IMG/VR virus record: IMGVR_UViG_3300017769_000046
Span: 1 to 35,399 of that record
DNA from: a virus
Length of the DNA: 35,399 nucleotides
Strand: one strand, 5' to 3'
Shown here in pieces: positions 1 through 35,399 of this stretch; within the stretch, counting starts at the first letter, position 1, and every line of letters starts with the position of its first letter. A program made the position numbers and the translations under genes. The notes beneath the pieces were generated by a model. The model ran no database searches. It was given only the letters and a program-made list of their open reading frames with translations, and was not told the DNA's origin.

Positions 1-123
1 CACTTGAGTTTACGACTAAAGCAGGATTGCTAAAAGTAGTGCCACCTGCCGTTGTTGATGGTGTAATTTCAAGAGCATTTGCAACGTTTTCTTGTATGGC
101 AATTTGAAAATTAGTATTAGATG
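1..123. repeat. terminal direct repeat copy 1 (circular-contig overlap / terminal redundancy)
   Basis: Read directly: bases 1-123 (cacttgagtttacgactaaagcagg...ttagtattagatg) are identical to 35277-35399. The flanking base 35276 lies before the repeat. Confidence 0.95.
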
Positions 124-3100: not shown

Positions 3101-5854
3101 AAGTGTTCTGTATGTAACGTTTTTTCCTTGATCCCACATAAGGGCTACAGTGTTACTAGCACCCTCAGATATACCATTTAAATTTAGCGTATCTATAAAC
3201 GTAGTGGAAGGTATCTCTTGAACCTCAAGGTTATTAAACTCTACAGTTCCGTCATAAGCGATGTAACCTACACCACCCTCTGTAAATGTAGTGTCGTTTA
3301 TTTCACCATTGATAATCTGGTTTCCATCAATATCTACTCGTATCTTTTGACTAATGACTTGTACGGTAACTCTATGCCAGTTACCATCATCTATATCTAC
3401 ACCTGAAATAGCAGTACCATTAACGCCGCCTATAAGATAAGATTGACCTACATTAGTTTGTCTTTTCTGTACTCTTACCGTATTTGAACTGCGTATAATT
3501 ACATTGTAACCATCTTCTGATGGTGAGTTTTGACCATGATAAACTAACCCAAGATGAGTAGCGTTACTAGTCTTAAATGAGAAGGTAGCTATAAAGTTTT
3601 GGTGTTCAGCGTATGGTGTAGTAGCTGCATAAGAACTAGAGCTTTTAACAAACTTAACTGTCTTATCATCTATCCAAGTTGCTGTATAGTTACTACCTGA
3701 TTTTCTCCAACTAGCGTTACCGTTAGTATTTGTAAAAGAACCATCAATGTTTAGGTCATTTGATATATCTACATCACCTCCTGCTTCTATAGTAAGTCTT
3801 GAGGTATTATTAGTTGCGAAGACAAGGTTGCTGTTTTCACGATTCCAAAACACCGCACCTGTAGAGTCATCATACCCTATAGCAACACCATCCGTATCAT
3901 TAAGACCTGTTGCAGTAGTAGTAAACCTTGCTAAGGATAATGATGCTTTATTAATATGAAGTTTTTGAGTAGGAGCATTTAATCCAATACCTACATTTTG
4001 GTTACTTCTTAATATGGTTATAGCATCTAAATCATTTGCAGTATCTGAATCAGTGGCATCGTGCATACCCAAATGCAACTTATTAGCATCACCATCATAA
4101 TAAATATAACCACCCTGAAAGCCTGCGCTAGTAGATGAACCTTCTGTAAATCTTATTCTTCTGTTGCCTGTACCATTTACTGCTGTAGCATCTAAAAATA
4201 AATCACCACCTCTTAACTTTGTATCGCCAGTAAGAATACCACCTGACAATTCAAGATACCTGCTATCTAAGTCAACAGATGTTAAACCAGTAACATGACC
4301 GTAAGTATCTAGCGTTACGTCTTGAATAACTGAACCATTACTATTATCAACAGAAGCCTGAGAGCTGGTGTCAGAATGTGACAGTGTAACCGCCCCTGAT
4401 GTACCACCACCACCAAGACCTGCACCTGCTGTAACTCCAGTTATGTCACCAGCGCCAAACCCAGCATCATTATTAAAGACAGAAATATCTATCTCACTTA
4501 AAGCCTTTCTTTTATTGGTTATACCATCCAGTATAGCTATTTCATCTATGGCTGCTACGTCCTCTGTCATATCTACCAGTCTAGATATGTTTAATGATAG
4601 AGTAGCCACGCCACTTGTTGTACCCCCACTAAGCCCCGAAGTTGTGCTAGTCGCAATTTCAGTAATATCTCCTGCTGCTGACGCAGGCGGAATGTACTCA
4701 AACTGTTTATTAGTTTGATTGTAGCTTAAACTACCTGTACCACTAGCCGCACTTTGAACAACAAGGTTTGCCTTGTCAGGGACAAACTCATCAACTAAAT
4801 TCTTTGAATTTAAACCAGTAACATGACCATAGGTGTCTAGCGTCACATCTTGTATAACGGAAACGCCTGAATTATCTACAGATGATTGTGTACTTGTATC
4901 TGAATGGGTCAAGGTTACTGTGCCTGACGTTCCGCCACCACCAAGACCTGCACCTGCCGTAACGCCTGTGATTGTACCTACGTTTGATGTATAACCAAGA
5001 CCAGTAACATAAGATGCAATGGCTGAGCTAGTCATTATCATTGCATTACTAGAAACAAACCCTTCTGTACTGTCTAGCAACGTGGCGGCACTAAATTGTG
5101 ATGTTGTTAGCCCAGAAACATCAAGCGTAACTGCGCCACTTGTACCCCCACCAGTTAATCCTGTACCTGCCGTAACGCCTGTAATGTCTCCTGCGTTATT
5201 AGTATATCCTGCGCCATTAGTAATGTATTGATTGTCTAATGCCCCACCTTGACCTGTATATGTAGATAATGCAGTATTTTCAACGTTACCAATGCCTAAG
5301 CTAGTTAGTGCCGCAGAACCTGACTCAACACTACCATCTGCCTTCAAGAACTGAGATGAAGTACCGCCACTCTTTACTATTGAAGAACCAGTAATTACGC
5401 CACCACTTATGTTACCTGTGGATGTAAGCGCACCACTTACGTATAACGCATCATCTGTCTGCCATCTATCATTAGTCTCGTTCCATATAAACGATTTGGT
5501 AGCCCCAGTACCTCTTTTTACTTCTATACCAGCATTTTCTGTAGGATTAGTGGTGCTAGTTATGTCTGCATTTAGGGTTATTATAGAATCGCCAATATTG
5601 AGATGTTGCGAATTTATAAATGTGGTAGTTCCAGTGACAGTAAGGTTACCAGCAATAGTTAAGTCGCTAGTAAAAGAAACGGAGGTTGGTATATTGTTAA
5701 AGTCTTGTCTGAGTAATGGAAACCCAGCTTGAGTAGAGCCATCATGAACAACAAGAGTGTTTTTCGTTGTGTCTACTGTTATCTCTCCCTCAGCCCCAGT
5801 AAACGTGCTGTGCTGAGTGGTTGTACCTCTTCTACGTTTTACTTCTGTTGCCAT
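1..5854 (-). CDS. giant tail fibre protein, N-terminal 1951 codons (the ORF leaves the window at base 1 and continues at 35399)
   Basis: Absent from the ORF track because it has no stop on this side of the window. The reverse complement from the ATG at 5854-5852 reads MATEVKRRRGTTTQHSTFTGAEGEITVDTTKNTLVVHDGSTQAGFPLL, a conserved tail-fibre N-terminal motif resembling the Mtd N-terminal domain. I spot-checked the frame (plus-strand triplets starting at positions = 2 mod 3) on the lines starting 1, 1441, 2701, 3181, 3361 and 4501 and found no tta/cta/tca. Frame arithmetic through the overlap: 5854-121 = 5733 = 3 x 1911. Confidence 0.85.
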   Translation of the reverse strand, partial: MATEVKRRRGTTTQHSTFTGAEGEITVDTTKNTLVVHDGSTQAGFPLLRQDFNNIPTSVSFTSDLTIAGNLTVTGTTTFINSQHLNIGDSIITLNADITSTTNPTENAGIEVKRGTGATKSFIWNETNDRWQTDDALYVSGALTSTGNISGGVITGSSIVKSGGTSSQFLKADGSVESGSAALTSLGIGNVENTALSTYTGQGGALDNQYITNGAGYTNNAGDITGVTAGTGLTGGGTSGAVTLDVSGLTTSQFSAATLLDSTEGFVSSNAMIMTSSAIASYVTGLGYTSNVGTITGVTAGAGLGGGGTSGTVTLTHSDTSTQSSVDNSGVSVIQDVTLDTYGHVTGLNSKNLVDEFVPDKANLVVQSAASGTGSLSYNQTNKQFEYIPPASAAGDITEIATSTTSGLSGGTTSGVATLSLNISRLVDMTEDVAAIDEIAILDGITNKRKALSEIDISVFNNDAGFGAGDITGVTAGAGLGGGGTSGAVTLSHSDTSSQASVDNSNGSVIQDVTLDTYGHVTGLTSVDLDSRYLELSGGILTGDTKLRGGDLFLDATAVNGTGNRRIRFTEGSSTSAGFQGGYIYYDGDANKLHLGMHDATDSDTANDLDAITILRSNQNVGIGLNAPTQKLHINKASLSLARFTTTATGLNDTDGVAIGYDDSTGAVFWNRENSNLVFATNNTSRLTIEAGGDVDISNDLNIDGSFTNTNGNASWRKSGSNYTATWIDDKTVKFVKSSSSYAATTPYAEHQNFIATFSFKTSNATHLGLVYHGQNSPSEDGYNVIIRSSNTVRVQKRQTNVGQSYLIGGVNGTAISGVDIDDGNWHRVTVQVISQKIRVDIDGNQIINGEINDTTFTEGGVGYIAYDGTVEFNNLEVQEIPSTTFIDTLNLNGISEGASNTVALMWDQGKNVTYRTLGSNAFNSDTIPTASDFLPITGGTLTGQLTSADIIPNADDTEFLGGTANRWRVLYATRIRTDILREADGTNVLGMTSTTRDLYGLDGSVRISFEDNVAITNGNVGIGTTNPVGKLYVGPTWSTNYGGNNLYIKNTSVDNTDYDPKVTNTSTLGITMVTDSSTTTGPDTVGLTLYNDDNTAGGFSPMLLFAKRETGSTDYKASMAGIYARSPLGTGNSNNWIDGELIFATAGAASNGIKQRMVINKEGNVGIGTTNPVGKLHVKASSAGAGVVLKIENAGANGAAQLDLTNDAQSWFVNTRTDDKFSIYNNTASTTALTIDTSNNVGIGTDSPVNNTPLTLQAPSGYTDTLWLKSVGTNIASRINIGPTGTGNAQINNATGTDIEFQVSGSEKMRIDSSGTVLVGADSDTGTGAGHVLFANGASYQVRDGGFTALFKRLNSDGEILRFYKDSAQIGSIGTANGDLFIGTTNGSDQSYLRFAFGGVGIVPATSAGLANDNALDLGASGARFKDLYLGGDAYIGDALDVGGNVDIDGKLTLDPNSLTNGIINTPASLRINIDSNNNNTGEKFVIGHNQDSINNNNELFVVNESGNATLAGDITLGDGSSDHRTLTLQTNAEKNSIINFKESTSTYGFSIGYYGVANDFIIKRHDNSTNGTDVLTLFRENDNATFAGDVVAPLFETTGTGYLYLGGHVRLNNPGSGTFKIGQYNGSSWNDTLNITNDGNVGITGDVEFSGNTLISTDTSDGSDNAQIIISGGGASGDARGASIHASGNEHGNGGLLQLRAGSGTVSEIRSYTSGTERMRITSAGDVNFYGVSQNADMVWDRSAKSLGIGTTSPSQTLEVHNTIKIGETGVAGGRLISGDSMIFQIDSDNSSTSSSYRFRTNGTADDGTELMRIQENGNVGIGTASPFFTTSNRVSLSLNGTSSSILAFGKNGSSENYILADAGGLTIANTSDSLPTIFFNNASERLRIDSSGNITHSGTSPQYIFKTASNTNFQIAIQENVANALEITPSTTAGGTTFSNPALVVNSS

Positions 5855-5858
5855 AAAT

Positions 5859-6359
5859 TTATACGCTAGGTGCTTGTAAGTAAGTTGGTATTGATGTAAT
5901 GATAGATCTTCCTATAAAATCTAAGTTAGCTGATCCTCTACCGATTTGATTGGTATAAGCTGTTGCTAAATTAAGGTTTTCTGGTATCACCGCAAAGAAA
6001 TTAGGGCTTCCATCACTTAAAGAAATTTCAACATGAGAGTCCCCAGTAGTTACGAGTGCTGATACTAAATCACCTAAAAAAGCAGAGACTGTGCTTGATG
6101 TATAGGACTGACTTCCCTGAGTTTGTTTTTGTGCAGTAGAACTAAGCAGCTTTTGAAATGACAAAGAAACACTTACTCTGTATCCCCTCAAGTTAGACCT
6201 AAGGGTTCCATCTATAGCCTCGTCAAAAGCAGAATTAAAGTTAACTTGACCAATGTCAGCAACCATATTATTAATCGTAAATTTATACTTCCAGTCACTA
6301 GACGAATCAAAATCTTTTTGACGTATCTCTATGCTTGTTATTTTATTAGACAGAGCCAT
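5859..6359 (-). CDS. tail/baseplate-associated protein, paralogue of 6346..6858
   Basis: 166-aa ORF directly upstream of the fibre gene. It shares the block FNSAFDEAIDGTLRSNLRGYR with FNVPFDEAIDGTLRGNFRDFR in the neighbouring ORF. Its start overlaps the neighbour's stop. Confidence 0.6.
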   Translation of the reverse strand: MALSNKITSIEIRQKDFDSSSDWKYKFTINNMVADIGQVNFNSAFDEAIDGTLRSNLRGYRVSVSLSFQKLLSSTAQKQTQGSQSYTSSTVSAFLGDLVSALVTTGDSHVEISLSDGSPNFFAVIPENLNLATAYTNQIGRGSANLDFIGRSIITSIPTYLQAPSV

Positions 6360-16175: not shown

Positions 16176-17735
16176 TTATTGCTCACTGTTTGATTCAATA
16201 CCAAGTTGAACTTGTCTTGCAAGTTCTTCCTGAGGTAATATATCTAATAAATTACGTAAATCCGCAGAACTTTTCGGCATACCATATTCCTTGAAGTAAT
16301 TGGTAACCTCATCAATGTCCTCTTGAGGCATAGAGCGCTTCCTCATATACTCTGATGTCAATTTAACAAGTAACGGTAGAGGCATAGCCTTGTACTGCAT
16401 ACCCTCTGTAATATCTGAGAATATTTCTTGCGCACTAGACAAGTCATAATGCTTGCTGTAGGTAACAATATAGTTCTCAAAGTCCTCGTCACGAACCCTA
16501 GCCATCCTTCTAAGGACTTGATTTTCAATCATTTCCATATCCATGGCTGTAGAAGCTAATAACCCTTGCTCGTCTACATTATCAAACCTCTTAGCTGCTC
16601 CAGATACGTTACTCTTAACAAGAGACTTATCACGAACCATAGCCATAGAAAATATCAATGACATCAGGTCACCAAAGATAACATCCCTGAGATGTTGCAA
16701 GCCCTGCATATCGGCTTGGTACAACATATTGTTGGGTATCGTTTGGTCATCAGGTATGATAATCGCCATACCCACGCCCTCTTTGATTGTGCGTGAATCG
16801 TACTGGTCATCATCAGCGACACCTGCTAGGCTTCGCACAATAGAGTCAGTAAGAACAGGGATAGGATGACCGAATAGTTCCGACCCTTTTTTCAGGTCAT
16901 AAAACAATTCAGAACAAGCAAGATACATACCTTTCAAGCTGTATCGTCTAGGCTTACCAACTACAAACGAACTATTTGCATCTGTCTGACCCTTGAGTAG
17001 TGTAGCTGGAACCTCACCAAATGGGTTGTCTATTTCTAGCACCTTTTGCTTTATATTATTTTCTTGGGTATATACGCAGATATACTCAGGTGTATAGGCT
17101 GTCCATTTAAACTTCTTTATGTTCTGAACGTCATAATACATCTGACGAGTAACAAGAAGCGTCAATACGCCCTGCTTAACTTGGAAGTTAAATATTTCGT
17201 GAGGGCGCAAAACAAAGTTATAGGGAACCACGTTGCCGCTATCATCAAGGACTGGCTCACCTTCGTTGTCCATCATTAGGTCAGTAACTACCGCACCAAA
17301 GCCAAGAACCTCCTTCACAAACATTACCTTGTCACGATAGAACTCAGTAATAGAACAACCTGCGTCATCAAAGTTACCTGACTTATATTTCCAAAAGTCT
17401 TTGTTTTCAGGGAACATTCTGTTGACGTTGTTTTCGTCATATATCCTCTGTTGAGCAGCAAAAAACTTCTGCTCCAAAGGAAATAACTTCATTCTCTTCA
17501 GTCTTTCTCTATATTCGTCATCAGACTCAATAGTGGACTGCTCTATGATGTAGGACTTATCAGAAAATACTGTACTAGATATGGCTGTGTACTCATCGTA
17601 TTCAGCCTGAAACCAACTATTCATAATTTTAGCACGATCAAGGACCACGCTATAATATGGATGTCTAGTCTCTTTCATCACTATATCTTCAGCGACATCT
17701 TTGGGTACAGAGTAAATTTTAGATAAATCAATCAT
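16176..17735 (-). CDS. portal protein (putative)
   Basis: 519 aa, the largest ORF between terminase and scaffold. Called from size and synteny. Confidence 0.65.
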   Translation of the reverse strand: MIDLSKIYSVPKDVAEDIVMKETRHPYYSVVLDRAKIMNSWFQAEYDEYTAISSTVFSDKSYIIEQSTIESDDEYRERLKRMKLFPLEQKFFAAQQRIYDENNVNRMFPENKDFWKYKSGNFDDAGCSITEFYRDKVMFVKEVLGFGAVVTDLMMDNEGEPVLDDSGNVVPYNFVLRPHEIFNFQVKQGVLTLLVTRQMYYDVQNIKKFKWTAYTPEYICVYTQENNIKQKVLEIDNPFGEVPATLLKGQTDANSSFVVGKPRRYSLKGMYLACSELFYDLKKGSELFGHPIPVLTDSIVRSLAGVADDDQYDSRTIKEGVGMAIIIPDDQTIPNNMLYQADMQGLQHLRDVIFGDLMSLIFSMAMVRDKSLVKSNVSGAAKRFDNVDEQGLLASTAMDMEMIENQVLRRMARVRDEDFENYIVTYSKHYDLSSAQEIFSDITEGMQYKAMPLPLLVKLTSEYMRKRSMPQEDIDEVTNYFKEYGMPKSSADLRNLLDILPQEELARQVQLGIESNSEQ

Positions 17736-21558: not shown

Positions 21559-22054
21559 AGGTATATGCCTTCTCCTTGAGCTCCATCAAGTCCTCCTTCG
21601 GTATATATACAAAGATATCCTTTCTATTGTTTCTACCCATTAGCGTATAAGCAATGGTACTGAAACCATATTTTTTATGGAGGCTATTGCCTCGTAACAC
21701 GCCTTTCTTATTGTTTATCTTGGGAATCATCTTTTTCTGTACGTATCCATACAGAGCCTTATTGTCCACGACCACAAACTCTCCATGAAACTGAAAGGCT
21801 ATTTTATCTGCACCATGGGGGCTACACCATCCAGACTTACCCTGAACGTTCCTAAACTCTATTAGGATATACCCCTTACTGTGGCACCCCTTAATGCCCT
21901 TGACATCATAGGTCACATCCCCAATACGAGCGTCAATGTGATTGTAGTCATCTTGCTTCGTGCCTTTTACGGCTCCTGTAATCTTGCAGAATAACTCTTC
22001 CGACTTCTGAGCCTCAGCGTACTGTCTTTTTTGTATTGCTTTAAATGAGTTCAT
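21548..22054 (-). CDS. PD-(D/E)XK-like nuclease-fold protein (putative)
   Basis: 168 aa. HIDARIGDVTYDVKGIKG...GYILIEF...GWC...ADKIAF has the shape of a D...(D/E)xK core. It lies between the small- and large-terminase genes. Confidence 0.4.
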   Translation of the reverse strand: MNSFKAIQKRQYAEAQKSEELFCKITGAVKGTKQDDYNHIDARIGDVTYDVKGIKGCHSKGYILIEFRNVQGKSGWCSPHGADKIAFQFHGEFVVVDNKALYGYVQKKMIPKINNKKGVLRGNSLHKKYGFSTIAYTLMGRNNRKDIFVYIPKEDLMELKEKAYTYEV

Positions 22055-22622
22055 AGTCTACCTCTATCGCCTCCATTCTTTGTGCAAACTCCTTCAGTTG
22101 ATCCATGTTTAGGAAGTCCTGAAGAACCTGCAACGTTTGTTCTCGCACCTTGTTTTTATACTCTATGATAATCGTTGGTTCATTACTCAACTCTTTACGA
22201 ACGTCATGTAAGTCTTTCATGATTTTACTCAAGTCCTTTGGGTGAATCGCATCCAAGTCTGGGTGATTCTCAAGCAGCGTAGTAATCTTTATCAGCATAA
22301 ACTCAACCTTAGCCGACATCTTCTCTTTTCGCTCCTCTAGCGTCCCAATGAACTGAAGAGTGTTACGGTACTGCTCAAGGTCTTTTAAGAGTTCTGGGTC
22401 AAATTTTGAGCGCTGCACGACATCCTTTGCTTGCTCACGTATCTTTATCTCTTCATCAAGGTTTGATCGTTGGTTTTTCCAATTGTAAATGGTTTGCCTT
22501 GACACACCCCATTTATCAGCCACTTTTGACACGTTACCCATCACCTTTATTTCCCTAAGGATGGCTACTTTCTCTTCAGGACTAAATTCGTTATTTCCAA
22601 CCTCTTTTTTTGACATACTCAA
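22041..22622 (-). CDS. small terminase-like protein: N-terminal HTH plus coiled coil (putative)
   Basis: 193 aa. HTH: VSKVADKWGVSRQTIYNWKNQ. It sits at the head of the packaging module. Confidence 0.5.
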   Translation of the reverse strand: MSMSKKEVGNNEFSPEEKVAILREIKVMGNVSKVADKWGVSRQTIYNWKNQRSNLDEEIKIREQAKDVVQRSKFDPELLKDLEQYRNTLQFIGTLEERKEKMSAKVEFMLIKITTLLENHPDLDAIHPKDLSKIMKDLHDVRKELSNEPTIIIEYKNKVREQTLQVLQDFLNMDQLKEFAQRMEAIEVDYELI

Positions 22623-22764
22623 CTACTGATTCTATGCGATTAAATATATAATTAGGCAACTTATCAGACATAGAGGGGATCTCATAAAGACTCATTATGA
22701 TAATCTTTATCTCCTCCGCTAACTCTTCCTTGGTTAATATGTTTTTCTTTTTATGCCAACCCAT
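22591..22764 (-). CDS. hypothetical protein, first gene of the late operon
   Basis: The track starts at a TTG (22773); the first ATG gives MGWHKKKNILTKEELAEEIK... Confidence 0.4.
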   Translation of the reverse strand: MGWHKKKNILTKEELAEEIKIIIMSLYEIPSMSDKLPNYIFNRIESVVEYVKKRGWK

Positions 22765-22922
22765 TTTACACAAACTTAATAAAATTGACAGACATTACTT
22801 ATAAATGGCGAGAATAGCAAATATTGACACTTTTTCATGGATTTTTGCTTTTCGCGAAAGGGAGGGTATTTAGCCCGTAGGCAAGTATATTTTAATATAT
22901 AAGCCCCTGTATAATATAATTT

Positions 22923-22965
22923 TCTAGTTCTATTATATAATATAAGAATCTAGTTTTATTATATA
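22923..22965. repeat. 17-bp direct repeat pair TCTAGTT(C/T)TATTATATA upstream of the late operon
   Basis: Copies at 22923-22939 and 22949-22965 with 1 mismatch, spaced 26 bp start to start, in the intergenic region. Confidence 0.7.
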
Positions 22966-22981
22966 GCTTTAAAGTATAGAC

Positions 22982-23015
22982 AAAAAAATAGCCCTGCATA
23001 TAATGCAAGGCTATA
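22982..23015 (-). terminator. rho-independent terminator closing the AT-rich cassette
   Basis: The minus strand reads ATAGCCTTGCAT-tat-ATGCAGGGCTAT (12-bp stem, one G.U pair) followed by TTTTTTT. Confidence 0.8.
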
Positions 23016-23043
23016 GGTTTAAAGTATATTTTAATTATATATT

Positions 23044-23337
23044 TTAATTGTCAAGTTTTACATAATCTGAAAGATCTAATCCAACATTATTTTGTTTTAT
23101 ATCCACACCTAAAAGTTGATTTATAGCTTCACTTATAAGAAAAAATTCGCGACTGTTAATCTTATTTTTAAGTTTATTATATGACATATTTTTTAAGTCA
23201 GATATACGATTTTCTGAAATACCTTTTTTATCTTTATCTATATTTTTACTTTTAGCAGATATAGATGTAGCTGTAATTAAACGTATATTAGTTTTTTCAC
23301 ATCTAAAATTGAGATAATATTCTATAAAATTTTTCAT
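23044..23337 (-). CDS. hypothetical protein, possible XRE-like HTH
   Basis: 97 aa, extremely AT-rich codons. GISENRISDLKN...LISEAINQLLGVD loosely resembles an XRE-type HTH. Confidence 0.45.
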   Translation of the reverse strand: MKNFIEYYLNFRCEKTNIRLITATSISAKSKNIDKDKKGISENRISDLKNMSYNKLKNKINSREFFLISEAINQLLGVDIKQNNVGLDLSDYVKLDN

Positions 23338-24068
23338 GCTGCTAACCTCATATTTTTAGATTTTAGTTTCTTAGCTTTTCTATAATCTTGGCTATATATT
23401 TTATATGGTATTTTATATAAATCTTTTTTAATAATTTTATAGGTATTATCATTTCTCATTACATTCCATAATGAAGCTTGAAATTCATAATAGTTTATAT
23501 CATATTTTTCAATAAAAGGTATAGCAATAATTTTCATAATGGTTTCTAAATCTTCATATACTCCTACATTATTTAATTTAGTTTTCCATATATCATTATT
23601 TTTAAATAAAGCTTTCATTATATGTGTATCTATAGTTATATAATTATTATCTAATAAAAGATTCCTATAAAAACTATATGTTTTTTTAGCTTTATTTCTA
23701 GCTAAGAATATATCTTTACCTTCAAATAATGGTAAAGCTTTTTTCCAATTATCACGTGATTGCCATTTTCTATGTTTATCTAAATCTATTTTTATACCTT
23801 TCTTTACAAGTTTAAGTATACGATAAACTTCATCTACATTTCTAGAGTATTTTGTATTGGATGAAAATACAGAAAACAATTGAGCTGTTTTATCAATATC
23901 TAAGAATTCGTATTCTTTATGTATATCTTTAATTAAATTATTATTATCAATATACCATTGTTTACCGTATTCAATATCTTCTATAGTTAGAAATCCTAAA
24001 GAATGTATAAGATTAGATTTAATTAGTTTTCTATGATTAGGTATAAAAGTTATATATAGTTTTTTCAT
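23334..24068 (-). CDS. hypothetical protein (largest gene of the AT-rich cassette)
   Basis: 244 aa, K/N/I/Y-rich. The blocks GKQWY, FSVFSSNTKYSRNV and KKTYSFYRNLLLDNNYITIDTH recall a conserved phage family of unknown function (WY...S(P/S)...W..N...K..sFY.N...(V/I)TID(R/T)H), from memory only. Confidence 0.55.
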   Translation of the reverse strand: MKKLYITFIPNHRKLIKSNLIHSLGFLTIEDIEYGKQWYIDNNNLIKDIHKEYEFLDIDKTAQLFSVFSSNTKYSRNVDEVYRILKLVKKGIKIDLDKHRKWQSRDNWKKALPLFEGKDIFLARNKAKKTYSFYRNLLLDNNYITIDTHIMKALFKNNDIWKTKLNNVGVYEDLETIMKIIAIPFIEKYDINYYEFQASLWNVMRNDNTYKIIKKDLYKIPYKIYSQDYRKAKKLKSKNMRLAA

Positions 24069-24087
24069 ATTATTGTATATTTTAAGT

Positions 24088-24306
24088 TTATATTTTATAA
24101 GTTAGTAGATATTTAGTATTATTTTCTAAATCGCTTTTCCTAATTATTTCATTTTTACCTATAAGGTAGTATCTATCAAAGTGTGAAATAATTGATTCAC
24201 GAACTGCTATATTATTAATATCATATTTTAAATCGAATGTATTAATAATAAAATCTATTTTAATTTTATCTGTATTTTCCATGTTATTATATATTTGAGT
24301 TTTCAT
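24088..24306 (-). CDS. hypothetical protein
   Basis: 72-aa ORF in the AT-rich cassette, overlapping the upstream ORF by 20 nt. Confidence 0.45.
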   Translation of the reverse strand: MKTQIYNNMENTDKIKIDFIINTFDLKYDINNIAVRESIISHFDRYYLIGKNEIIRKSDLENNTKYLLTYKI

Positions 24307-24535
24307 TAATTAGTTGATAGTATTTTTCATTCGTACTATCAATTATTTCTATACGGTTTAATCTAAACTTTCGTATAGCAAAATTTAGTTCATATAATTC
24401 ATTGCCACATATAGGACAACCTTCAATCCATTTTATATCCGAAAATATATTTTTTTCTGTATCTATCGATATAATATGTTCTTCATCCAAATCTATATTA
24501 CAACTTGGACAATAACTTTGTATTTCATTATACAT
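24287..24535 (-). CDS. zinc-ribbon protein (CxxC...CxxC)
   Basis: 82 aa with YCPSCNIDL ... GCPICGNELY. Confidence 0.5.
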   Translation of the reverse strand: MYNEIQSYCPSCNIDLDEEHIISIDTEKNIFSDIKWIEGCPICGNELYELNFAIRKFRLNRIEIIDSTNEKYYQLINENSNI

Positions 24536-24536
24536 A

Positions 24537-24644
24537 TTATTATCTATTTATAAGATGAATAAAAATATGCATTCCAAAGTATAGAAAGGTAAAACTCATA
24601 AATGTAATAAAACATATATGATATAATCGTTCGAATTTTTTCAT
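24537..24644 (-). CDS. small hydrophobic peptide (35 aa), not in the track
   Basis: Hand translation: MKKFERLYHICFITFMSFTFLYFGMHIFIHLINR. Its TAA lies 1 nt before the next ATG (TAATATG). The upstream 22 nt (ATAAACTAAAATATATAATAAC) closely resemble those before the 23334..24068 gene (TAAACTTAAAATATACAATAAT). Confidence 0.4.
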
Positions 24645-24893
24645 GTTATTATATATTTTAGTTTATATTTTAAGGCCTATTTTTTGCCTTGTTTTTCAGT
24701 ACTATAATATAACACTAATTAACTAAAATACAAAATACTAAATACAGTATTTTCAATAATATACACTAAAATGATTATTAATATACACCTTATATTATAC
24801 AAAAAAGCAACTAGCTATATTATATATTAAAATATATTTTTAAAGTATATAATTAGTAAAAATCCATTTTAAGGGTACGTAAAAATTTGGCAT

Positions 24894-24924
24894 AAAAAAA
24901 CCCTACACAACTCAATGTATAGGG
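24894..24924 (-). terminator. rho-independent terminator ending the leftward early operon
   Basis: The minus strand reads CCCTATACA-TTGAGT-TGTGTAGGG (9-bp stem, one G.U pair) followed by TTTTTTT. Confidence 0.8.
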
Positions 24925-24947
24925 CTTATAACTTTAACGGATAATTT

Positions 24948-25163
24948 TTATTTTGGTTCCTTATAAGGGTAATAGGCAACGTCATCACCGTTTGCTAGTC
25001 TTAGAATTGACTCATTAGACAAGGAAACTCTTATAGATTCAAAATTTATATGGCTAGTCAGTTCAATAAATATTTTACCGTCTTTATATATATATTCCAT
25101 TTCCAAAAAATTGAGTCTATTTATACATTTTTCTATGTCATTAATTGTTACTTTCTTATACAT
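24948..25163 (-). CDS. hypothetical protein
   Basis: 71-aa ORF, overlaps the upstream gene and is followed by a terminator. Confidence 0.5.
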   Translation of the reverse strand: MYKKVTINDIEKCINRLNFLEMEYIYKDGKIFIELTSHINFESIRVSLSNESILRLANGDDVAYYPYKEPK

Positions 25164-25435
25164 TTTTTACCCTCTCTTTTTGATTCTTGACTAGGAGTAT
25201 AACTACTAAATACCCACTCCATGTCTTGATGAAGTATTTTTATTTTTTCTTTATGACTCTTAGTTCCATCTTCAATAAGATTTATTAAGAACATCACCGA
25301 ATCAATAGGATCGTCAGATTGCTCGAGCATCCAATTAACGTAAAATAATTTTGTGATTACATCTGGGACACGATCTTTTTTTTCTTTTATATATGGTTGT
25401 ATGAAATGTGATTGTATTTCTGCTTGTATATTCAT
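25148..25435 (-). CDS. hypothetical protein
   Basis: 95-aa ORF in the leftward early operon. Confidence 0.5.
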   Translation of the reverse strand: MNIQAEIQSHFIQPYIKEKKDRVPDVITKLFYVNWMLEQSDDPIDSVMFLINLIEDGTKSHKEKIKILHQDMEWVFSSYTPSQESKREGKKCIRK

Positions 25436-25439
25436 GTTA

Positions 25440-25715
25440 TTAACCTCTTACTGTGTATGTGTTGCCATTTGCTTTCACCTTGGTTAAGGAGTGTGCATTT
25501 ATTGTTCGATACTGTGCCTTATACATATCGAATGCTACTATATACCCATTCTCACTAGGGTTATACGACATGGAACCACCTCTTAAGTGTTTTTTAACAC
25601 CTAATCTAGCTACCATGTTTCTTTGTGTGCCATCCTTTTTTTTGAAGCTAACACTAAATATTGAGTTATTCTGACTTTGTAATAGGTTATATGCTTGTTG
25701 CTTATTGATTGTCAT
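25440..25715 (-). CDS. small beta-barrel protein (DUF2693/WYL_2-like, tentative)
   Basis: 91 aa. IFSVSFKKKDGTQRNMVARLGV... resembles the v.F.KKDG..R.m pattern of that family (from memory). Confidence 0.5.
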   Translation of the reverse strand: MTINKQQAYNLLQSQNNSIFSVSFKKKDGTQRNMVARLGVKKHLRGGSMSYNPSENGYIVAFDMYKAQYRTINAHSLTKVKANGNTYTVRG

Positions 25716-25765
25716 AATTCATCATGTTTTGTTATTGTTATTTTAGAACACAAGTAATATATGAC

Positions 25766-25774
25766 TTATCCACA
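25766..25774 (+). promoter_or_regulatory. perfect DnaA box TTATCCACA
   Basis: Read directly (gacTTATCCACAttaa), in the intergenic region between the O-like replication gene and the next gene. Confidence 0.6.
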
Positions 25775-25805
25775 TTAAAACAAAAAAAAACTTGTCTTGT
25801 TGTTA

Positions 25806-26234
25806 TTAATCCTCGTATTCTCTGTAGTCTATCAAACCACCTAATATAGGAGAAGAATCTTGTCGTGGTTTGTATGTATTGTTATTGTATTGTTGTGTGT
25901 TAAATTTCTTTACCACTTGAGGTAAAATTTCTTTACCATGGGGTAAAATTTCTTTACCCAACATTAGCTTAATTTTGGTGGTTCTGTTGTGTCGTTTTTT
26001 AGTAGAAATCAATCCAATTTTTTCTAGGTTCGATAATGATTTAATGATAGTTGGTTTGCTATAATTAGTCATCCCACAAATTTGAGAAACAGAAATTCTG
26101 TCCTCTGTCTTGTTCCAACCCCAAGTCTTTCTAATGATGGCTAATAGTACTAAAAATTCATTATGACTAAGTTCTTTCATGTACTTATCGAAAATTGAAT
26201 TTGGTATTGGTATAAATCCTTCTTGCTCAAGCAT
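25806..26234 (-). CDS. replication initiator, phage lambda O-like N-terminal (wHTH) domain protein
   Basis: FIPIPNSIFDKYMKELSHNEFLVLLAIIRKTWGWNKTEDRISVSQICGMTNYSKPTIIKSLSNLEKIGLI matches the Phage_rep_O pattern (...RkTyGwnK..d.IS.sQ...TG.s...v..al..L). Only 142 aa. Confidence 0.75.
   Translation of the reverse strand: MLEQEGFIPIPNSIFDKYMKELSHNEFLVLLAIIRKTWGWNKTEDRISVSQICGMTNYSKPTIIKSLSNLEKIGLISTKKRHNRTTKIKLMLGKEILPHGKEILPQVVKKFNTQQYNNNTYKPRQDSSPILGGLIDYREYED
25899..25958. repeat. iterons inside the O-like gene: 2 perfect and 1 imperfect copy of GGTAAAATTTCTTTACC (candidate origin)
   Basis: Perfect copies at 25921-25937 and 25942-25958 (21-bp period) and an imperfect copy, gtTAAATTTCTTTACC, ending at 25914. 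Each unit has inverted arms GGTAAA/TTTACC. They encode GKEILPHGKEILP. Confidence 0.7.
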
Positions 26235-26252
26235 GCATAAAAATTAATTTTG
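26223..26252 (+). promoter_or_regulatory. candidate Bacteroidota-type promoter (TTG-N19-TAATTTTG) for the rightward early operon
   Basis: TTG at 26223-26225, a 19-nt spacer, then TAATTTTG at 26245-26252. This matches the -33 TTG / -7 TAnnTTTG consensus described for Bacteroides and Flavobacterium. Confidence 0.4.
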
Positions 26253-26258
26253 TGATTA

Positions 26259-26267
26259 TGTGGAAAA
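26259..26267 (-). promoter_or_regulatory. DnaA-box-like site (TTTTCCACA, 1 mismatch) at the predicted early transcription start
   Basis: The plus strand reads tgtggaaaa, in the divergent promoter region next to the O-like gene. Confidence 0.35.
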
Positions 26268-26315
26268 CTACTAAATTGGATTCACTTAAACAAAAATTAA
26301 TGGAGGTTGACCAAT

Positions 26316-30522: not shown

Positions 30523-30610
30523 CAGGAAAATCCTGATACCAATCAAAACTGATTTATTTTTATTCTAACCTGTTAATTGTGTTAGTTAGTCGTTTTGATG
30601 ATATTTTGTA

Positions 30611-30636
30611 AAGGGGAGTGATGTCCCCTTTTTTAT
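30611..30636 (+). terminator. rho-independent terminator (second, about 90 nt after the first)
   Basis: AAGGGGA-gtgatg-TCCCCTT followed by TTTTATT. Confidence 0.7.
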
Positions 30637-30695
30637 TGGTATTGATATTCTCAACGTAACTACCTAGATTTTAGTTTTTAACTAATAAAACTGGT

Positions 30696-31276: not shown

Positions 31277-31465
31277 ATGACTTGGACTTGGTTAAAAGCA
31301 CGACTAAAAGAACCCTCCACCTATCAAGGTGTAACCGCTATAGCTGGAGCCATCGGTGTCAGCATTCAGCCTGACCTATATGAATCTATCGCAGCGCTGA
31401 TGGTTGCAATTATTGGTGTAATTCAAACTATTAAAAAAGAGAAAAAAGAGGATGAAAAGCCTTGA
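31277..31465 (+). CDS. holin (class-II-like); the frame is open from 31085 with alternative starts at 31085 and 31235
   Basis: MTWTWLKARLKEPSTYQGVTAIAGAIGVSIQPDLYESIAALMVAIIGVIQTIKKEKKEDEKP has two hydrophobic segments and a charged tail, and sits directly after the endolysin. The upstream in-frame part is low-complexity and basic, so it may be non-coding. Confidence 0.6.
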   Translation: MTWTWLKARLKEPSTYQGVTAIAGAIGVSIQPDLYESIAALMVAIIGVIQTIKKEKKEDEKP

Positions 31466-31489
31466 CTAATTGATTAGACTTGGTTAGAT

Positions 31490-31498
31490 TTATCCACA
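31490..31498 (+). promoter_or_regulatory. perfect DnaA box TTATCCACA upstream of the DnaA-domain-IV gene
   Basis: Read directly (gatTTATCCACAgtc), intergenic. Confidence 0.6.
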
Positions 31499-31554
31499 GT
31501 CTTAAGGATAGGGTTTTTTTTAGTAGAATTTTCCCTTATCTGATGCGAGCATCA

Positions 31555-31596
31555 GCCCCCCAGTGCTAGACTGCTTAGTGGGGGGCATTTTTTTTA
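31555..31596 (+). terminator. GC-stem hairpin plus T8 (terminator or leader attenuator)
   Basis: GCCCCCC-(18 nt)-GGGGGGC followed by ATTTTTTTT. It lies between the holin and the ATG at 31623. The track GTG start at 31563 falls inside this hairpin. Confidence 0.65.
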
Positions 31597-31622
31597 TTAA
31601 TACAATAACAAAAAGGATACAT

Positions 31623-31967
31623 ATGATAGCAGAACACATTGTAAGTTCCGTATGTAATAGATTTGAAATTACACGAAACGAATTAAGGAGTCAAAGCAGG
31701 AAGGCACACCTAGTAGATGCACGACAAACTTGTGCATTTGCATTACGAAAATTTGGTTGCACTTACGAATATATAGGAAATGTCATAAATCGTAAGGATC
31801 ATACTACAATAATGCACCTATTAAAGAATAGATTGCATAATATGCACGAGAATCAACGTATAGCTAATGAAACCGTAAATGCATATAAAGACATGGCTGT
31901 TCCTAGGATAAGCCGTAAGAAGCTAAATATGGAGCAGTTTTTAGAGATGGTTCAACAAACAAAATAA
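31623..31967 (+). CDS. DnaA C-terminal (domain IV, DnaA-box-binding HTH) domain-only protein
   Basis: IVSSVCNRFEITRNELRSQSRKAHLVDARQTCAFALRKFGCTYEYIGNVINRKDHTTIMHLLKN matches the Bac_DnaA_C pattern (...l.s..R.....aRQiamYl.r......IG..fg.rDHtTV.ha..k). The AAA+ domain is absent. Confidence 0.75.
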   Translation: MIAEHIVSSVCNRFEITRNELRSQSRKAHLVDARQTCAFALRKFGCTYEYIGNVINRKDHTTIMHLLKNRLHNMHENQRIANETVNAYKDMAVPRISRKKLNMEQFLEMVQQTK

Positions 31968-31972
31968 TTTTT

Positions 31973-32182
31973 ATGGAAACTGTAACAATTTTATTGTTTA
32001 GTTCAACAATGACCTATATTGGATGGTTGTTTGGTGTTGCCCAACAAATTCAAGAGTCAGAGAAAGAAATAAACAAGGCGTATAAGGAAGGATACGTAAA
32101 AGGGTATTTTGATGGCCATGCTTATGCCACCAAAAAAGAAAAGCCCTACTATGAGGACTTTCCTGAAATGGGGATAAACTAG
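31973..32182 (+). CDS. small membrane protein (N-terminal TM)
   Basis: METVTILLFSSTMTYIGWLFGVAQQ... is the last gene of the plus-strand operon. Confidence 0.5.
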   Translation: METVTILLFSSTMTYIGWLFGVAQQIQESEKEINKAYKEGYVKGYFDGHAYATKKEKPYYEDFPEMGIN

Positions 32183-33108: not shown

Positions 33109-35399
33109 TTAACCTGTTCTGTATGTTATTTGAAAAATTAAATCGTTTGAGTTTGAAGAACTACTTGTATCTGTTGGACTTAAATTTGAGATATTAGAAG
33201 TAGTTGATGAGTGATAATACAAATATATTCTTTCAGTTCCATGTATGGCTAACATCTTTGGCTCTTCGCCACCAAATGCAGTAGAATACCCAATAGCGCC
33301 TGCATAAAAACTAGGTCCTGAAAGGATGTCTGTTACGGTAAAAGGTATTCCATCAACATATACCGCACCTGAAGAACTAGACCATGAAAGACCACTTGTT
33401 TCTATACGACCCCACAAGTGAACAACGTTTCCAACTTTTATATATCTACCTGCTGTTACAGATGTATATGTAACATTTGTAACTGTTGCTGAAGAAGAAG
33501 AGTATGTTGGTGTCCAAGAGCCTTCTTCATAGTCATCAAGGGCATTGGCAGCTGCTGTATCTCCATTGAAAGTGATACCACCACTTGATAAGATGCGTAC
33601 CTTCTCTGAACCACCGACTTGCCAAATTATATTAGCAGAACTCTGCGTTGCGTTCTGAATGATGTCGGCAGAACTACCTATACGAAATATGTCGTAACAA
33701 TTTGATACGTCATATCCTACCCTTAATCTAGCTGAACCACCACTACTATTATTTAATACATTTATCGCAGTTGCACTAGATTGATTTTTTATAATCTCTA
33801 ATGTAGCACTAGGACTATTTGTACCAATACCTACGTTACCTTGAAAGTTAATATTTAAAGGTGTAGCACCCCCACCATATCCACCTAGCCCTAAATATCC
33901 TACTCCATCTGCTAAAATGTGAAAGTAATCTCCACCTATAAAATCACCATTAGAACCATCTAAGAATATTGCGGCTCCATTATTATACTCTTGTAGAGTG
34001 ATAGAACTACTACCATCACTAACTTCAAATTTTGCTACAGGACTAGTAGTACCAATCCCTACGTTACCACCTGCTTGAATAGTGAACTGGTCACCAACGC
34101 CATTTTCATGTAACGCAAAGTCACCATTAGTATATGACTTTAACCACCATTGATTTACATTTGAACTATCATTAAGTCCTATTTTATAATCAGTACTACT
34201 CTTAAAATACACCTGACCGCTTGAGTCAATGCGCATACGTTCAGTATTATTGGTAGCAAATCTTAAATATCCATTTTTATAGTTCCAAAATTCTGCATTT
34301 GTACTGTCAGGGCTACCTATTATAAAGTTTGCATTGTCGGATGAATCATATCCAGCAAGTTGCGTTCTACTATTACTAGTGGTTTCTAGTTTTAAAATAT
34401 TTGTGCCTGCTTTTATATGAAGTGGATAGTTGGGATTCGTTTCGCCAATACCTACTTTACCGTCATTTGTGAAACGAACCATTTCACCATTATCTGACTT
34501 ATAAAACTTAAATGTTCCTGCATCAGTTATGCTTAATTTATCTGCTCCACTTCCGTTAGCAACCTTAAAAGCAAAGTTTGAATCAGAAGTCCCACTTGAA
34601 CGAATGCCTAGCTTTATATTTGAGCCAAGTGATGCCCCAATACTTACGTTACCATCACCCTGTATGGTTAATCTAGTAGCTAAACCCCCATTATATGGCT
34701 TTGTTTTAAACTGAAGCTCTCCTGCGGCAGTAGCTAAAGTTCCTTCTTTTTGAGCAGTGATACTAGAAACTATTGCGTCACCTGAATCAGCTGCATTGGT
34801 AAAGTTAATAGCACCAATGTCTGCTTGCGTACCAGCCACGCTATAACCAGTCATTCTTAATACTGCTTGAGATGCAGAATTGGTTACACCTGATACTCTA
34901 GCTGTCGTAGTTGAACCCCCTGAGTTTAAGTCTAAAGTATAATCAGGGGCTGGGTTACCTATACCTAATCTAGTCTCACTAGAATCAAAGTGAAAGTTTT
35001 CTACTTGACTAACACTTCTAAAAGCAACGTCACCATTTGAATGGATGCGCATACGTTCTGAACCGCCTGCGTATATTATTTGATTGACTCCGCTTCCACC
35101 GTAATAAATCATGTCTTCACTAGCGTCAAGTTGGATGTAAGACACTTGACTTCCAGCATTATGGAATCTTACAGATGCGTAACCTCCACCATCCTTTTCA
35201 ATAACTAAATCACTTGAAGTCCCCGCATCCAAATGTAAAGTACCATCTATGGATGATGTACCAATACCTACGTTACCACTTGAGTTTACGACTAAAGCAG
35301 GATTGCTAAAAGTAGTGCCACCTGCCGTTGTTGATGGTGTAATTTCAAGAGCATTTGCAACGTTTTCTTGTATGGCAATTTGAAAATTAGTATTAGATG
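33109..35399 (-). CDS. giant tail fibre protein, C-terminal part (same ORF as 1..5854; total (5854+2168)/3 = 2674 codons including the stop)
   Basis: The track ORF 33109..35232 only begins at the first in-window Met; the frame stays open up to 35399. It contains repeated ...MRI(D/H)S(S/N)G(N/D)V.. GNVGIGT modules. The C-terminus reads DDYEEGSWTPTY...GRYIKVGNVVHLWGRI, a motif I recognise from phage fibre receptor-binding tips. Confidence 0.85.
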   Translation of the reverse strand, partial: SNTNFQIAIQENVANALEITPSTTAGGTTFSNPALVVNSSGNVGIGTSSIDGTLHLDAGTSSDLVIEKDGGGYASVRFHNAGSQVSYIQLDASEDMIYYGGSGVNQIIYAGGSERMRIHSNGDVAFRSVSQVENFHFDSSETRLGIGNPAPDYTLDLNSGGSTTTARVSGVTNSASQAVLRMTGYSVAGTQADIGAINFTNAADSGDAIVSSITAQKEGTLATAAGELQFKTKPYNGGLATRLTIQGDGNVSIGASLGSNIKLGIRSSGTSDSNFAFKVANGSGADKLSITDAGTFKFYKSDNGEMVRFTNDGKVGIGETNPNYPLHIKAGTNILKLETTSNSRTQLAGYDSSDNANFIIGSPDSTNAEFWNYKNGYLRFATNNTERMRIDSSGQVYFKSSTDYKIGLNDSSNVNQWWLKSYTNGDFALHENGVGDQFTIQAGGNVGIGTTSPVAKFEVSDGSSSITLQEYNNGAAIFLDGSNGDFIGGDYFHILADGVGYLGLGGYGGGATPLNINFQGNVGIGTNSPSATLEIIKNQSSATAINVLNNSSGGSARLRVGYDVSNCYDIFRIGSSADIIQNATQSSANIIWQVGGSEKVRILSSGGITFNGDTAAANALDDYEEGSWTPTYSSSSATVTNVTYTSVTAGRYIKVGNVVHLWGRIETSGLSWSSSSGAVYVDGIPFTVTDILSGPSFYAGAIGYSTAFGGEEPKMLAIHGTERIYLYYHSSTTSNISNLSPTDTSSSSNSNDLIFQITYRTG
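35277..35399. repeat. terminal direct repeat copy 2 (identical to 1-123)
   Basis: Same 123-nt string as the window start. It lies inside an open reading frame, so it is more likely an assembly overlap of a circular or permuted genome than a functional DTR. Confidence 0.95.

Follow-up and report, generated by a model that had tools for sequence, protein, structure and literature searches.

The DNA analysed here is the 35,399-nucleotide (nt) record IMGVR_UViG_3300017769_000046 in full (hereafter the window), the genome of an uncultured marine phage whose relatives come from marine metagenomes, including Tara Oceans. It encodes a stand-alone DnaA domain IV of 114 amino acids (aa), the product of what we call the DnaA_C gene. 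We propose, with about even confidence, that this protein is a Cro-like, self-regulating repressor acting on DnaA-box operators, and that it probably also competes with host DnaA. Four promoter-like sites, among them that of the gene itself, have a box so placed that a protein bound to it would be expected to obstruct RNA polymerase. Between the gene's own promoter and its start codon lies a conserved leader with a predicted intrinsic terminator, which may set how much of the protein is made. Coordinates of all features are given in Table 1.

A free DnaA domain IV and the DnaA boxes of the phage

The original prediction had read the 114-aa open reading frame (ORF) as DnaA domain IV without an AAA+ module, a reading borne out by Pfam, by structural modelling and by the DNA-contact residues. 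A profile search with Bac_DnaA_C (PF08299), as had been proposed, matched residues 4-68 to profile positions 2-67 of 69 at 61.8 bits, against a cut-off of 31.5 (E 6.5e-17), and Pfam placed neither an AAA+ nor any other domain in the protein. NCBIfam DnaA models match it only through their C-terminal 80 positions. Given its length and a match confined to those last 80 positions, the protein is not an initiator, and we rejected its identity as a full-length initiator DnaA, AAA+ domain III and N-terminal domain I both being missing. The close homologues (n = 20) are nearly all 114-115 aa long, with two shorter ones of 85 and 93 aa. A longer, GTG-started ORF from 31563 was rejected as well, because it begins inside the terminator hairpin and is unconserved in relatives.

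An AlphaFold2 model built from an alignment of 19 family members reached a predicted local distance difference test (pLDDT) score of 85 and replaced a poor single-sequence model (pLDDT 67). Its ten best matches in the Protein Data Bank (PDB) are all DnaA chains, headed by the domain IV-DNA complexes 3pvp and 1j1v at a Foldseek probability of 1.00, and template modelling (TM) scores against DnaA domain IV structures range from 0.59 to 0.72. In Escherichia coli DnaA, the residues R399, R407, Q408, P423, R432, D433, H434, T435, T436 and H439 reportedly contact bases or backbone of the DNA, in work by Fujikawa et al. 2003 and Blaesing et al. 2000. Of this list R399 and T435, and only these two, are confirmed as DNA contacts in PMC9638019. 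Profile alignment to 1j1v placed R26, R34, Q35, D59, H60, T61, T62 and H65 at E. coli R399, R407, Q408, D433, H434, T435, T436 and H439, and K58 at R432, and most contact residues are invariant across the protein family. Judged by these residues, the protein looks like a canonical DnaA-box reader without the ATPase or oligomerisation parts.

The chain continues beyond domain IV into a tail (residues 103-114, 31929-31964) that ends in a conserved helix, NMEEFLEMVQQ, in which F106, L107, E108, V110 and Q111 are invariant; other subfamilies end in an acidic ..EEG tail. This C-terminal helix may be a partner-binding motif.

Upstream of the gene, a perfect DnaA box lies exactly where it had been reported, its last base 125 nt from the ATG. 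A consensus scan placed it inside the core of a predicted sigma-70-type promoter, the leader promoter, whose -35 overlaps the stop codon of the upstream gene. We retrieved 16 loci by protein similarity alone (51-97% identity), all of which carry the same non-coding element upstream of the gene, and pattern scans extended these to 43-45 distinct versions; six of 36 viral contigs matching a 17-nt core were chance matches in G+C-rich DNA and were discarded. TTGAC(T/A) and TA(G/C)ATT stand 17 nt apart in all versions, and the spacer sequence between them has been replaced several times (43 distinct relatives). Such conservation of the two hexamers around a drifting spacer is the pattern expected of a real promoter.

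A box that fits TTWTNCACA lies at the start site in 35 of the 43 distinct promoter variants. In the main lineage it starts at the last -10 base, within a block, TAGATTTAT-NN-ACAGTCTT, whose sole variable sites are box positions 5 and 6. All four bases occur at position 5, which corresponds to the N of the DnaA-box consensus and varies more than any other column. Box variants among relatives include TTATCTACA and TTATTTACA. The latter, degenerate box is carried by L033, the sole contig without a DnaA_C gene, where promoter, leader and terminator are followed directly by the gene for the 69-aa membrane-type protein (L033 2489-2850), evidence that amounts to one anecdote. A second lineage (L003, L004, L185) has a box-like sequence a few bases further downstream, together with an extra perfect or near-perfect inverted box in the spacer, TTGACT-GTT-TGTGGATAA-TTAAT-TACATT, with the same geometry as the 26250(+) and 25783(-) sites described below.

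Several other arrangements were seen at or near such promoters. At ~700-770 (-) of L057, a second TTGACT-N17-TAGATT lies ~100 bp from the leader promoter, and its -10 runs into an inverted perfect box, TAGAT-TGTGGATAA. Many relatives have two copies of TGCACAATAAAAAC, ~22 bp apart, just upstream of the leader -35 (L006 5760-5800), and in the L012 type (L012 2455-2520; L043, L184) the TGCACAATAAAAAC pair separates the terminator from the DnaA_C start codon. The window itself has no copy of the motif. At 30610-30670 of the window, in front of the M15 peptidase gene, a terminator-like hairpin is followed directly by TTGATA-N17-TAGATT, a promoter-like site whose -10 is identical to that of the leader promoter and which has no DnaA box.

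The original prediction had named two further boxes, near the O-like replication initiator gene, and had listed marking of the phage origin among the possible roles of a free domain IV. All three boxes are conserved at the same positions in relatives; those near the O-like gene are not simply origin marks, as each lies in a promoter-like spacer with one geometry. The pattern TTGNNN-N3-TGTGGAWAA-N4-TANNNT occurs twice in the window against a simulated mean of 0.017, and none of 300 simulated genomes reached two. Both sites are kept in six relatives (L001, L002, L003, L004, L175, L185) with O-like proteins 57-68% identical, in which the -10 of the 25783(-) site varies among TATATT, TATCTT and TAGATT at fixed spacing. 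This site lies 40 nt past the O-like gene and adjoins an A-rich tract. The box at 26259-26267, read as TTTTCCACA, also overlaps the -10 of the O-like-gene promoter, an arrangement read by eye that resembles the one at 31490. In L175 and L003 the O-like-gene promoter, as judged by eye, still has TTG and TAGTTT 17 nt apart around differing spacers.

Enrichment of boxes by counting was rejected as an argument. On both strands of the 35.4-kb window there are 2 perfect boxes against 0.38 expected (two of 100 shuffles reached two), 11 one-mismatch boxes against 12.75 expected, and 6 TTWTNCACA matches against 5.35 expected. With the relaxed counts at chance level, counting is weak evidence, and support for the boxes comes from conservation and context.

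Repressor, host DnaA or activator

In the proposed circuit, DnaA boxes would serve as operators in four promoters, lying in the spacer of the rightward early promoter and of the second leftward promoter beside the origin, over the -10 of the O-like leftward promoter, and over the -10/+1 of the gene's own promoter. Since its gene is located distally in the rightward arm and downstream of a predicted intrinsic terminator, the 114-aa protein would be produced late or in small amounts. Like Cro in lambda, it would then switch off early transcription as well as its own expression, and it would also occupy host DnaA boxes at oriC in competition with host DnaA, because the residues that read TTATCCACA are kept. 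From the sequence we infer that the boxes are bound by the phage protein rather than by host DnaA, and likewise the repression, its timing, the host effect and the control of termination. The phage protein is favoured as ligand because its own promoter carries the site, because there is no other recognisable repressor (we found no Cro/CI-type helix-turn-helix protein among the small early ORFs), and because repressors made from a distal gene of the early arm are well known in phages. The small DnaA-box circuit that had been suggested earlier fits the three conserved boxes, autoregulation included. A broader version, in which this phage family runs its early-to-late switch on the host DnaA box, with four repressed promoters, arrest of host initiation and a new class of leader-RNA gating, is doubtful as a whole.

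Several points weigh against a repressor of this kind. Sequence does not tell the phage protein from host DnaA as the ligand, as both would recognise these sites. Eight of the 43 leader-promoter boxes break the consensus at position 6 or position 2, and no covariation of box variants with the recognition helix is visible. Because the exact leader core served as the query for many loci, its invariance among them is partly by construction, and the early promoter-like sites, which match the promoter consensus at only 8 of 12 positions, had been found by eye before the pattern test. Within the protein, the positions of E. coli P423 and K415 are unconserved in the alignment to 1j1v (E49 and L41, with R42 adjacent); Aquifex DnaA likewise lacks the P423 proline. 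A single 9-bp site with a monomeric domain is a weak operator by phage-repressor standards. None of ten distant viral DnaA_C genes has a box in the 250 nt upstream; autoregulation is therefore not general to the DnaA_C domain, and the box-in-promoter circuit is, as far as compared, specific to this family. Lastly, the 25766 box lies beside iterons and an A-rich tract, the place expected for the DnaA box of an iteron origin, and a role for it at the origin is possible.

This last point leads to a different reading, in which host DnaA reads the boxes, tying the early promoters and the origin to host initiation and helping the O-like initiator to open the origin. The phage protein would then act mainly against the host, by blocking oriC and DnaA-controlled genes, or else would displace host DnaA from phage sites. 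A box, iterons and an A-rich tract are the usual layout of DnaA-using iteron origins such as those of P1, pSC101, F and RK2, and here one box lies ~120 nt from the three iterons and beside the A-rich tract. The boxes are also the exact universal host consensus, and a phage protein with the canonical contact residues kept would compete at any host box. Moreover, DnaA is known as a repressor and activator at box-carrying promoters (for a review, see PMC8203912). However, it is hard to see what would be gained if the host repressed the early promoters of a lytic phage, and a box in the promoter of the sole phage gene that encodes a box-binding domain is a signature of autoregulation. The identical spacer geometry at three promoters looks like operator design rather than an origin element, and no prophage copy or host was found that would show the box preference of the host DnaA. 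We consider this reading a real possibility that is nonetheless somewhat doubtful; the phage protein and host DnaA may both compete for the boxes.

It has also to be asked whether the protein could act later, as an activator or co-factor of late genes, or could have drifted in specificity so that the boxes are unrelated to it. In Rhodobacter, the DnaA-like, N-terminal DNA-binding domain of GafA is needed to activate gene transfer agent promoters, and in Hyphomicrobiales a separate small DnaA-like gene precedes gafA (PMC9638019). This precedent, together with the position of the gene at the end of the early arm, a frequent place of late regulators, speaks for such a role. However, no sigma-like or GafA-like (DUF6456) partner follows, the next gene encoding the 69-aa membrane-type protein; the canonical base-reading residues argue against a new specificity; and a site within a 16-17 nt promoter spacer suits repression, not activation. 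We therefore regard this alternative as very unlikely. Late activation through the box-like sequence at 22764-22772, the sole one upstream of the terS-like gene, was rejected, as it is unconserved in eight relatives.

The leader RNA and its terminator

The conserved promoter-like site ahead of the hairpin, and the ~27 nt from its T-run to the ATG, support the earlier placement of the hairpin in a leader. The original prediction had described a GC hairpin with T8 at 31555-31596 that looked like an attenuator. The hairpin and the T8 stand, the end coordinate was one base too far (31595), and the leader appears to be more than a mere hairpin, namely a folded RNA with covarying long-range pairing. 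The terminator stem has 8 pairs (GCCCCCCA/UGGGGGGC), 7 of them G-C, and is followed by CA and U8, the features of an intrinsic terminator, at which termination is predicted. All relatives have the hairpin, with covariation at its closing pair (14 sequences with A-U, 2 with G-C); a simple terminator scan, with a loop limit of 8 nt, missed it. Among related viral contigs the leader is 60-105 nt long, and the distance from the T-run to the ATG is 9-27 nt in all but a few loci, the L012 type having 70-107 nt with other repeats in this interval. The ~27 nt between T8 and ATG in the window leave no room for a promoter, and the gene therefore depends on read-through.

A pairing named P1 joins the terminator loop to the predicted 5' end of the leader RNA. 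Because MAFFT sets the two lineages one column out of register, P1 pairs were counted by script instead; the pairing exists in all 16 distinct combinations of 5' strand and loop, and its partner always starts at loop position 7. The main lineage has CAGUCU/AGACUG and the second lineage ACAUUUUAC/GUGAAAUGU, with compensated variants in L010 (ACAUUUUAU/AUAAAAUGU) and L059 (ACAUUUUAC/GUAAAAUGU) and a G-U pair in L159 and L180. Shuffled loops reach 9-bp helices in 0-13 of 2,000 trials; 6-bp helices are individually not significant. For the optional hairpin P1a, RNAalifold gave 8 pairs, none of them broken, 3 changed on both sides and 2 on one side, and the hairpin is absent from several relatives (e.g., L006, L034). 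The block GCGAGCAUCA is invariant in 16 of 16 protein-retrieved loci, down to 51% protein identity. A second pairing, P2, is predicted in the nascent RNA of most variants; it never varies, so covariation is uninformative for it.

When the nascent RNA was folded before emergence of the G6 run, P1, usually with P2, formed in every variant tested, with the C6 run in the loop of the fold. P1 occupies the terminator loop and sequesters neither terminator arm, and it is predicted to form first. From these foldings we infer that the terminator can close only after the P1/P2 fold, which precedes it, has come at least partly apart. In the proposed mechanism, the leader RNA would thus fold first by pairing of its 5' end with the terminator-loop-to-be, presenting the C6 tract in a loop, and this fold would probably compete with C6:G6 terminator closure and so set read-through into the gene. 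On the evidence of this comparison, the leader is a previously undescribed structured RNA with predicted long-range pairing that covaries. Rfam gave no family at threshold in the window, and its best match in the 301-nt region had an E-value >1. A leader peptide, an 8-codon ORF from an ATG at 31543, was rejected, as most relatives have AAG there.

The same features can be read as those of a small RNA of ~100 nt (~60 nt without P1a) that would be the main product of the 31462 promoter, acting in trans or protecting itself through the pairing of its 5' end with the loop. DnaA_C would then be expressed by incidental read-through only, and the box would tune small-RNA output. Promoter, short structured RNA and strong terminator make up a complete small-RNA gene, the RNA core is more conserved than the protein, and the element persists in L033 without a DnaA_C gene; the long interval before the ATG in the L012 type also fits. 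However, the ATG follows the T-run closely in nearly all other loci, and the downstream genes must use read-through. Nor is there a convincing trans target for GCGAGCAUCA in the genome, where reverse-complement matches with at most 2 mismatches number 22 against 14.8 expected, none of them at a start codon. A small RNA as the main product seems quite unlikely to us, and it would be compatible with the repressor proposed above.

Genome setting and known systems

An exact 123-bp direct repeat at the ends of the window (1-123 = 35277-35399) indicates a complete genome of 35,276 bp, circular or terminally redundant. Table 1 lists its two arms and the divergent control region between them, together with the elements discussed above.

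Table 1. Coordinates of the DnaA_C gene, its leader, the box-carrying promoter-like sites and the surrounding features of the window.
Feature	Position	Strand	Details
DnaA domain-IV-only (DnaA_C) gene	31623-31967	+	114 aa; ATG 31623, stop 31965-31967; AGGA 6-9 nt before ATG
Gene for 69-aa protein	31973-32182	+	N-terminal hydrophobic segment; probably co-transcribed; follows DnaA_C gene in all relatives but L033
Leader promoter-like site	31462-31490	+	-35 TTGACT 31462-31467, 17-nt spacer, -10 TAGATT 31485-31490; consensus scan
Perfect DnaA box TTATCCACA	31490-31498	+	Overlaps last -10 base and predicted start site ~31496-31498
P1 5' strand CAGUCU	31497-31502	+	Predicted 5' end of leader RNA; pairs with 31568-31573
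P1a optional hairpin GGAUAGGG ... CCCUUAUC	31506-31541	+	In 5' bulge of fold
Invariant block GCGAGCAUCA	31545-31554	+	Unvarying in any relative
P2	31548-31552 with 31563-31567	+	AGCAU with GUGCU; predicted pairing
Intrinsic terminator	31555-31595	+	Predicted; stem G31555-A31562/U31579-C31586, 16-nt loop, T8 31588-31595
P1 3' strand AGACUG	31568-31573	+	Inside terminator loop
Divergent control region	~25.7-26.3 kb		Holds minus-strand O-like initiator gene with three iterons
O-like replication initiator	25806-26234	-	N-terminal winged helix; PHROG 678 E 2.6e-20; TIGR01610 48.4 bits vs cut-off 45.5
Three iterons, 20 nt, TAAAATTTCTTTACC core	25895-25958		Spaced 21-23 nt; in 3' part of O-like gene, as in lambda-type origin
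Rightward early promoter-like site	26250-26277	+	TTGTGA-TTA-TGTGGAAAA-CTAC-TAAATT; box 26259-26267 in spacer
Leftward promoter-like site of O-like gene	26265-26293	-	-35 TTGTTT 26293-26288, 17-nt spacer, -10 TAGTTT 26270-26265
Second leftward promoter-like site	25756-25783	-	TTGTTT-TAA-TGTGGATAA-GTCA-TATATT; perfect box 25766-25774 in spacer
Plus arm, first part	within 26.3-32.2 kb (whole arm)	+	Exonuclease, Erf-type annealing protein, DnaB-like helicase, terminator plus promoter
Plus arm, rest		+	M15 peptidase, 126-aa hydrophobic protein, promoter/leader element, DnaA_C gene, 69-aa membrane-type protein gene
Minus arm		-	Small early ORFs, structural genes, tail-fibre-like ORF of ~2,690 codons across window junction

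The 69-aa protein found no family match in Pfam, PHROGs or NCBIfam. A minus-arm terminator-like hairpin lies inside its ORF at 32137-32164 (-), and the two arms therefore converge and overlap there. The tail-fibre-like ORF is a single open frame running from 33112-35399 into 1-5911 on the minus strand; its C-terminal 707 aa match tail-fibre PHROGs, and it is unusually large for a 35-kb phage. Over the small early minus-arm ORFs (window 22000-26000) G+C is 26-29%, against ~38% elsewhere, and the one at 25440-25715 encodes a WYL_2 domain. A strongly conserved non-coding block at ~22800-22900 (-), upstream of the terS-like gene, contains TACCCTCCCTTTCGC(G/A)AAA and TTTGTCAATTTTATTAA and is kept in eight relatives whose flanks are unalignable; it may represent either a late promoter or a further regulatory RNA. 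The terS-like ORF itself probably starts at a conserved ATGGGnTGGCA near 22765, rather than at the listed TTG at 22622.

No integrase or lysogeny genes were seen in the genome, and the 22-nt leader core had no match in 185,579 species genomes; an attachment-site or prophage reading was rejected on the missing integrase and the missing match. A scan of the species genomes with the DnaA_C protein returned only true DnaA genes at no more than 45% identity, and no prophage copy or host. Cultured relatives were equally elusive: megablast of 7.4 kb found none, tblastn with the 518-aa minus-strand ORF (16176-17732) and with the helicase found no match among 50,697 phage records, and a search for cultured relatives with the DnaA_C protein gave three weak matches, all unannotated faecal contigs. 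The good Shine-Dalgarno sequences, together with the sigma-70-like hexamers, point to a host among the proteobacteria.

Stand-alone DnaA_C proteins are common. A search of 1.8 billion representative proteins gave 1,214 matches at E <=0.001, with lengths of 70-200 aa for most of the top 150. The same short domain, at 92-196 aa, occurs in the 'DnaA protein' of Cellulophaga phage phi19:1, in Tenacibaculum phage Gundel_1, in Flavobacterium phage tooticki6-1 and in many uncultured Caudovirales; annotated phage DnaA_C proteins are 15-29% identical to the 114-aa protein. The earlier suggestion of an uncharacterised phage DnaA-mimic circuit was right in that we found no functional study of stand-alone phage DnaA_C proteins in the literature, and wrong if taken to mean a rare protein, as domain-IV-only proteins are widely annotated. 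As far as compared, the box-in-promoter circuit and the leader RNA are features of this phage's protein family. If true, the DnaA-box switch would give a first function to a large uncharacterised group of phage 'DnaA C-terminal' proteins, and one protein could serve both as an internal switch of the phage and as a competitor of the host initiator. The pairing of the 5' end with the terminator loop may offer a simple means of adjusting read-through or RNA stability, in a leader kept across dozens of marine viral contigs.

The protein shares its fold and Pfam family with DnaA domain IV (E. coli 1J1V, M. tuberculosis 3PVP/3PVV), including the minor-groove Arg and the D-H-T-T..H recognition helix. 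It differs in having ~20 extra C-terminal residues and a sequence identity of only 20-27%, and, compared with DnaA, in lacking domains I-III and hence ATP binding, oligomerisation and helicase loading. The proposed circuit resembles autoregulation of dnaA, where a box likewise lies over the promoter of the gene for the box-binding domain and other promoters also carry boxes; the phage regulator, however, has no ATP switch or oligomerisation and would serve an early/late programme rather than the cell cycle. With lambda Cro/CI and OR/OL it would share a small helix-turn-helix protein in the early rightward arm, with operators in divergent early promoters and in its own control region. Here, however, the fold is unrelated, and the operators are single asymmetric 9-bp sites, in contrast to a palindrome bound by a dimer.

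The lambda pR'-6S RNA-tR' module, with Q, likewise has a promoter followed within ~100 nt by a strong terminator, beside lysis genes, and needs read-through. In this phage, Pfam, PHROGs and NCBIfam revealed no Q-like protein, the ORFs upstream of the leader encoding the M15 peptidase and the 126-aa hydrophobic protein, and only two small genes lie downstream. We know of no description of pairing between the 5' end and the terminator loop for lambda 6S RNA. Iteron origins (P1 oriR, pSC101, F and RK2; reviewed in PMC4980987) likewise combine an initiator gene and iterons with an A/T-rich tract and a nearby DnaA box, whereas here a promoter spacer also contains the box, and the phage brings its own gene for a box-binding domain. 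GafA, with its DnaA-like domain, is the closest precedent; the domain likewise serves transcription control in a phage-derived element, and separate small DnaA-like genes occur in some lineages (PMC9638019). GafA, however, is an activator, and its sigma-like C-terminal domain binds the omega subunit of RNA polymerase, and its gene neighbours differ; its similarity to DnaA is weak, whereas the 114-aa protein passes the Pfam threshold by 30 bits.

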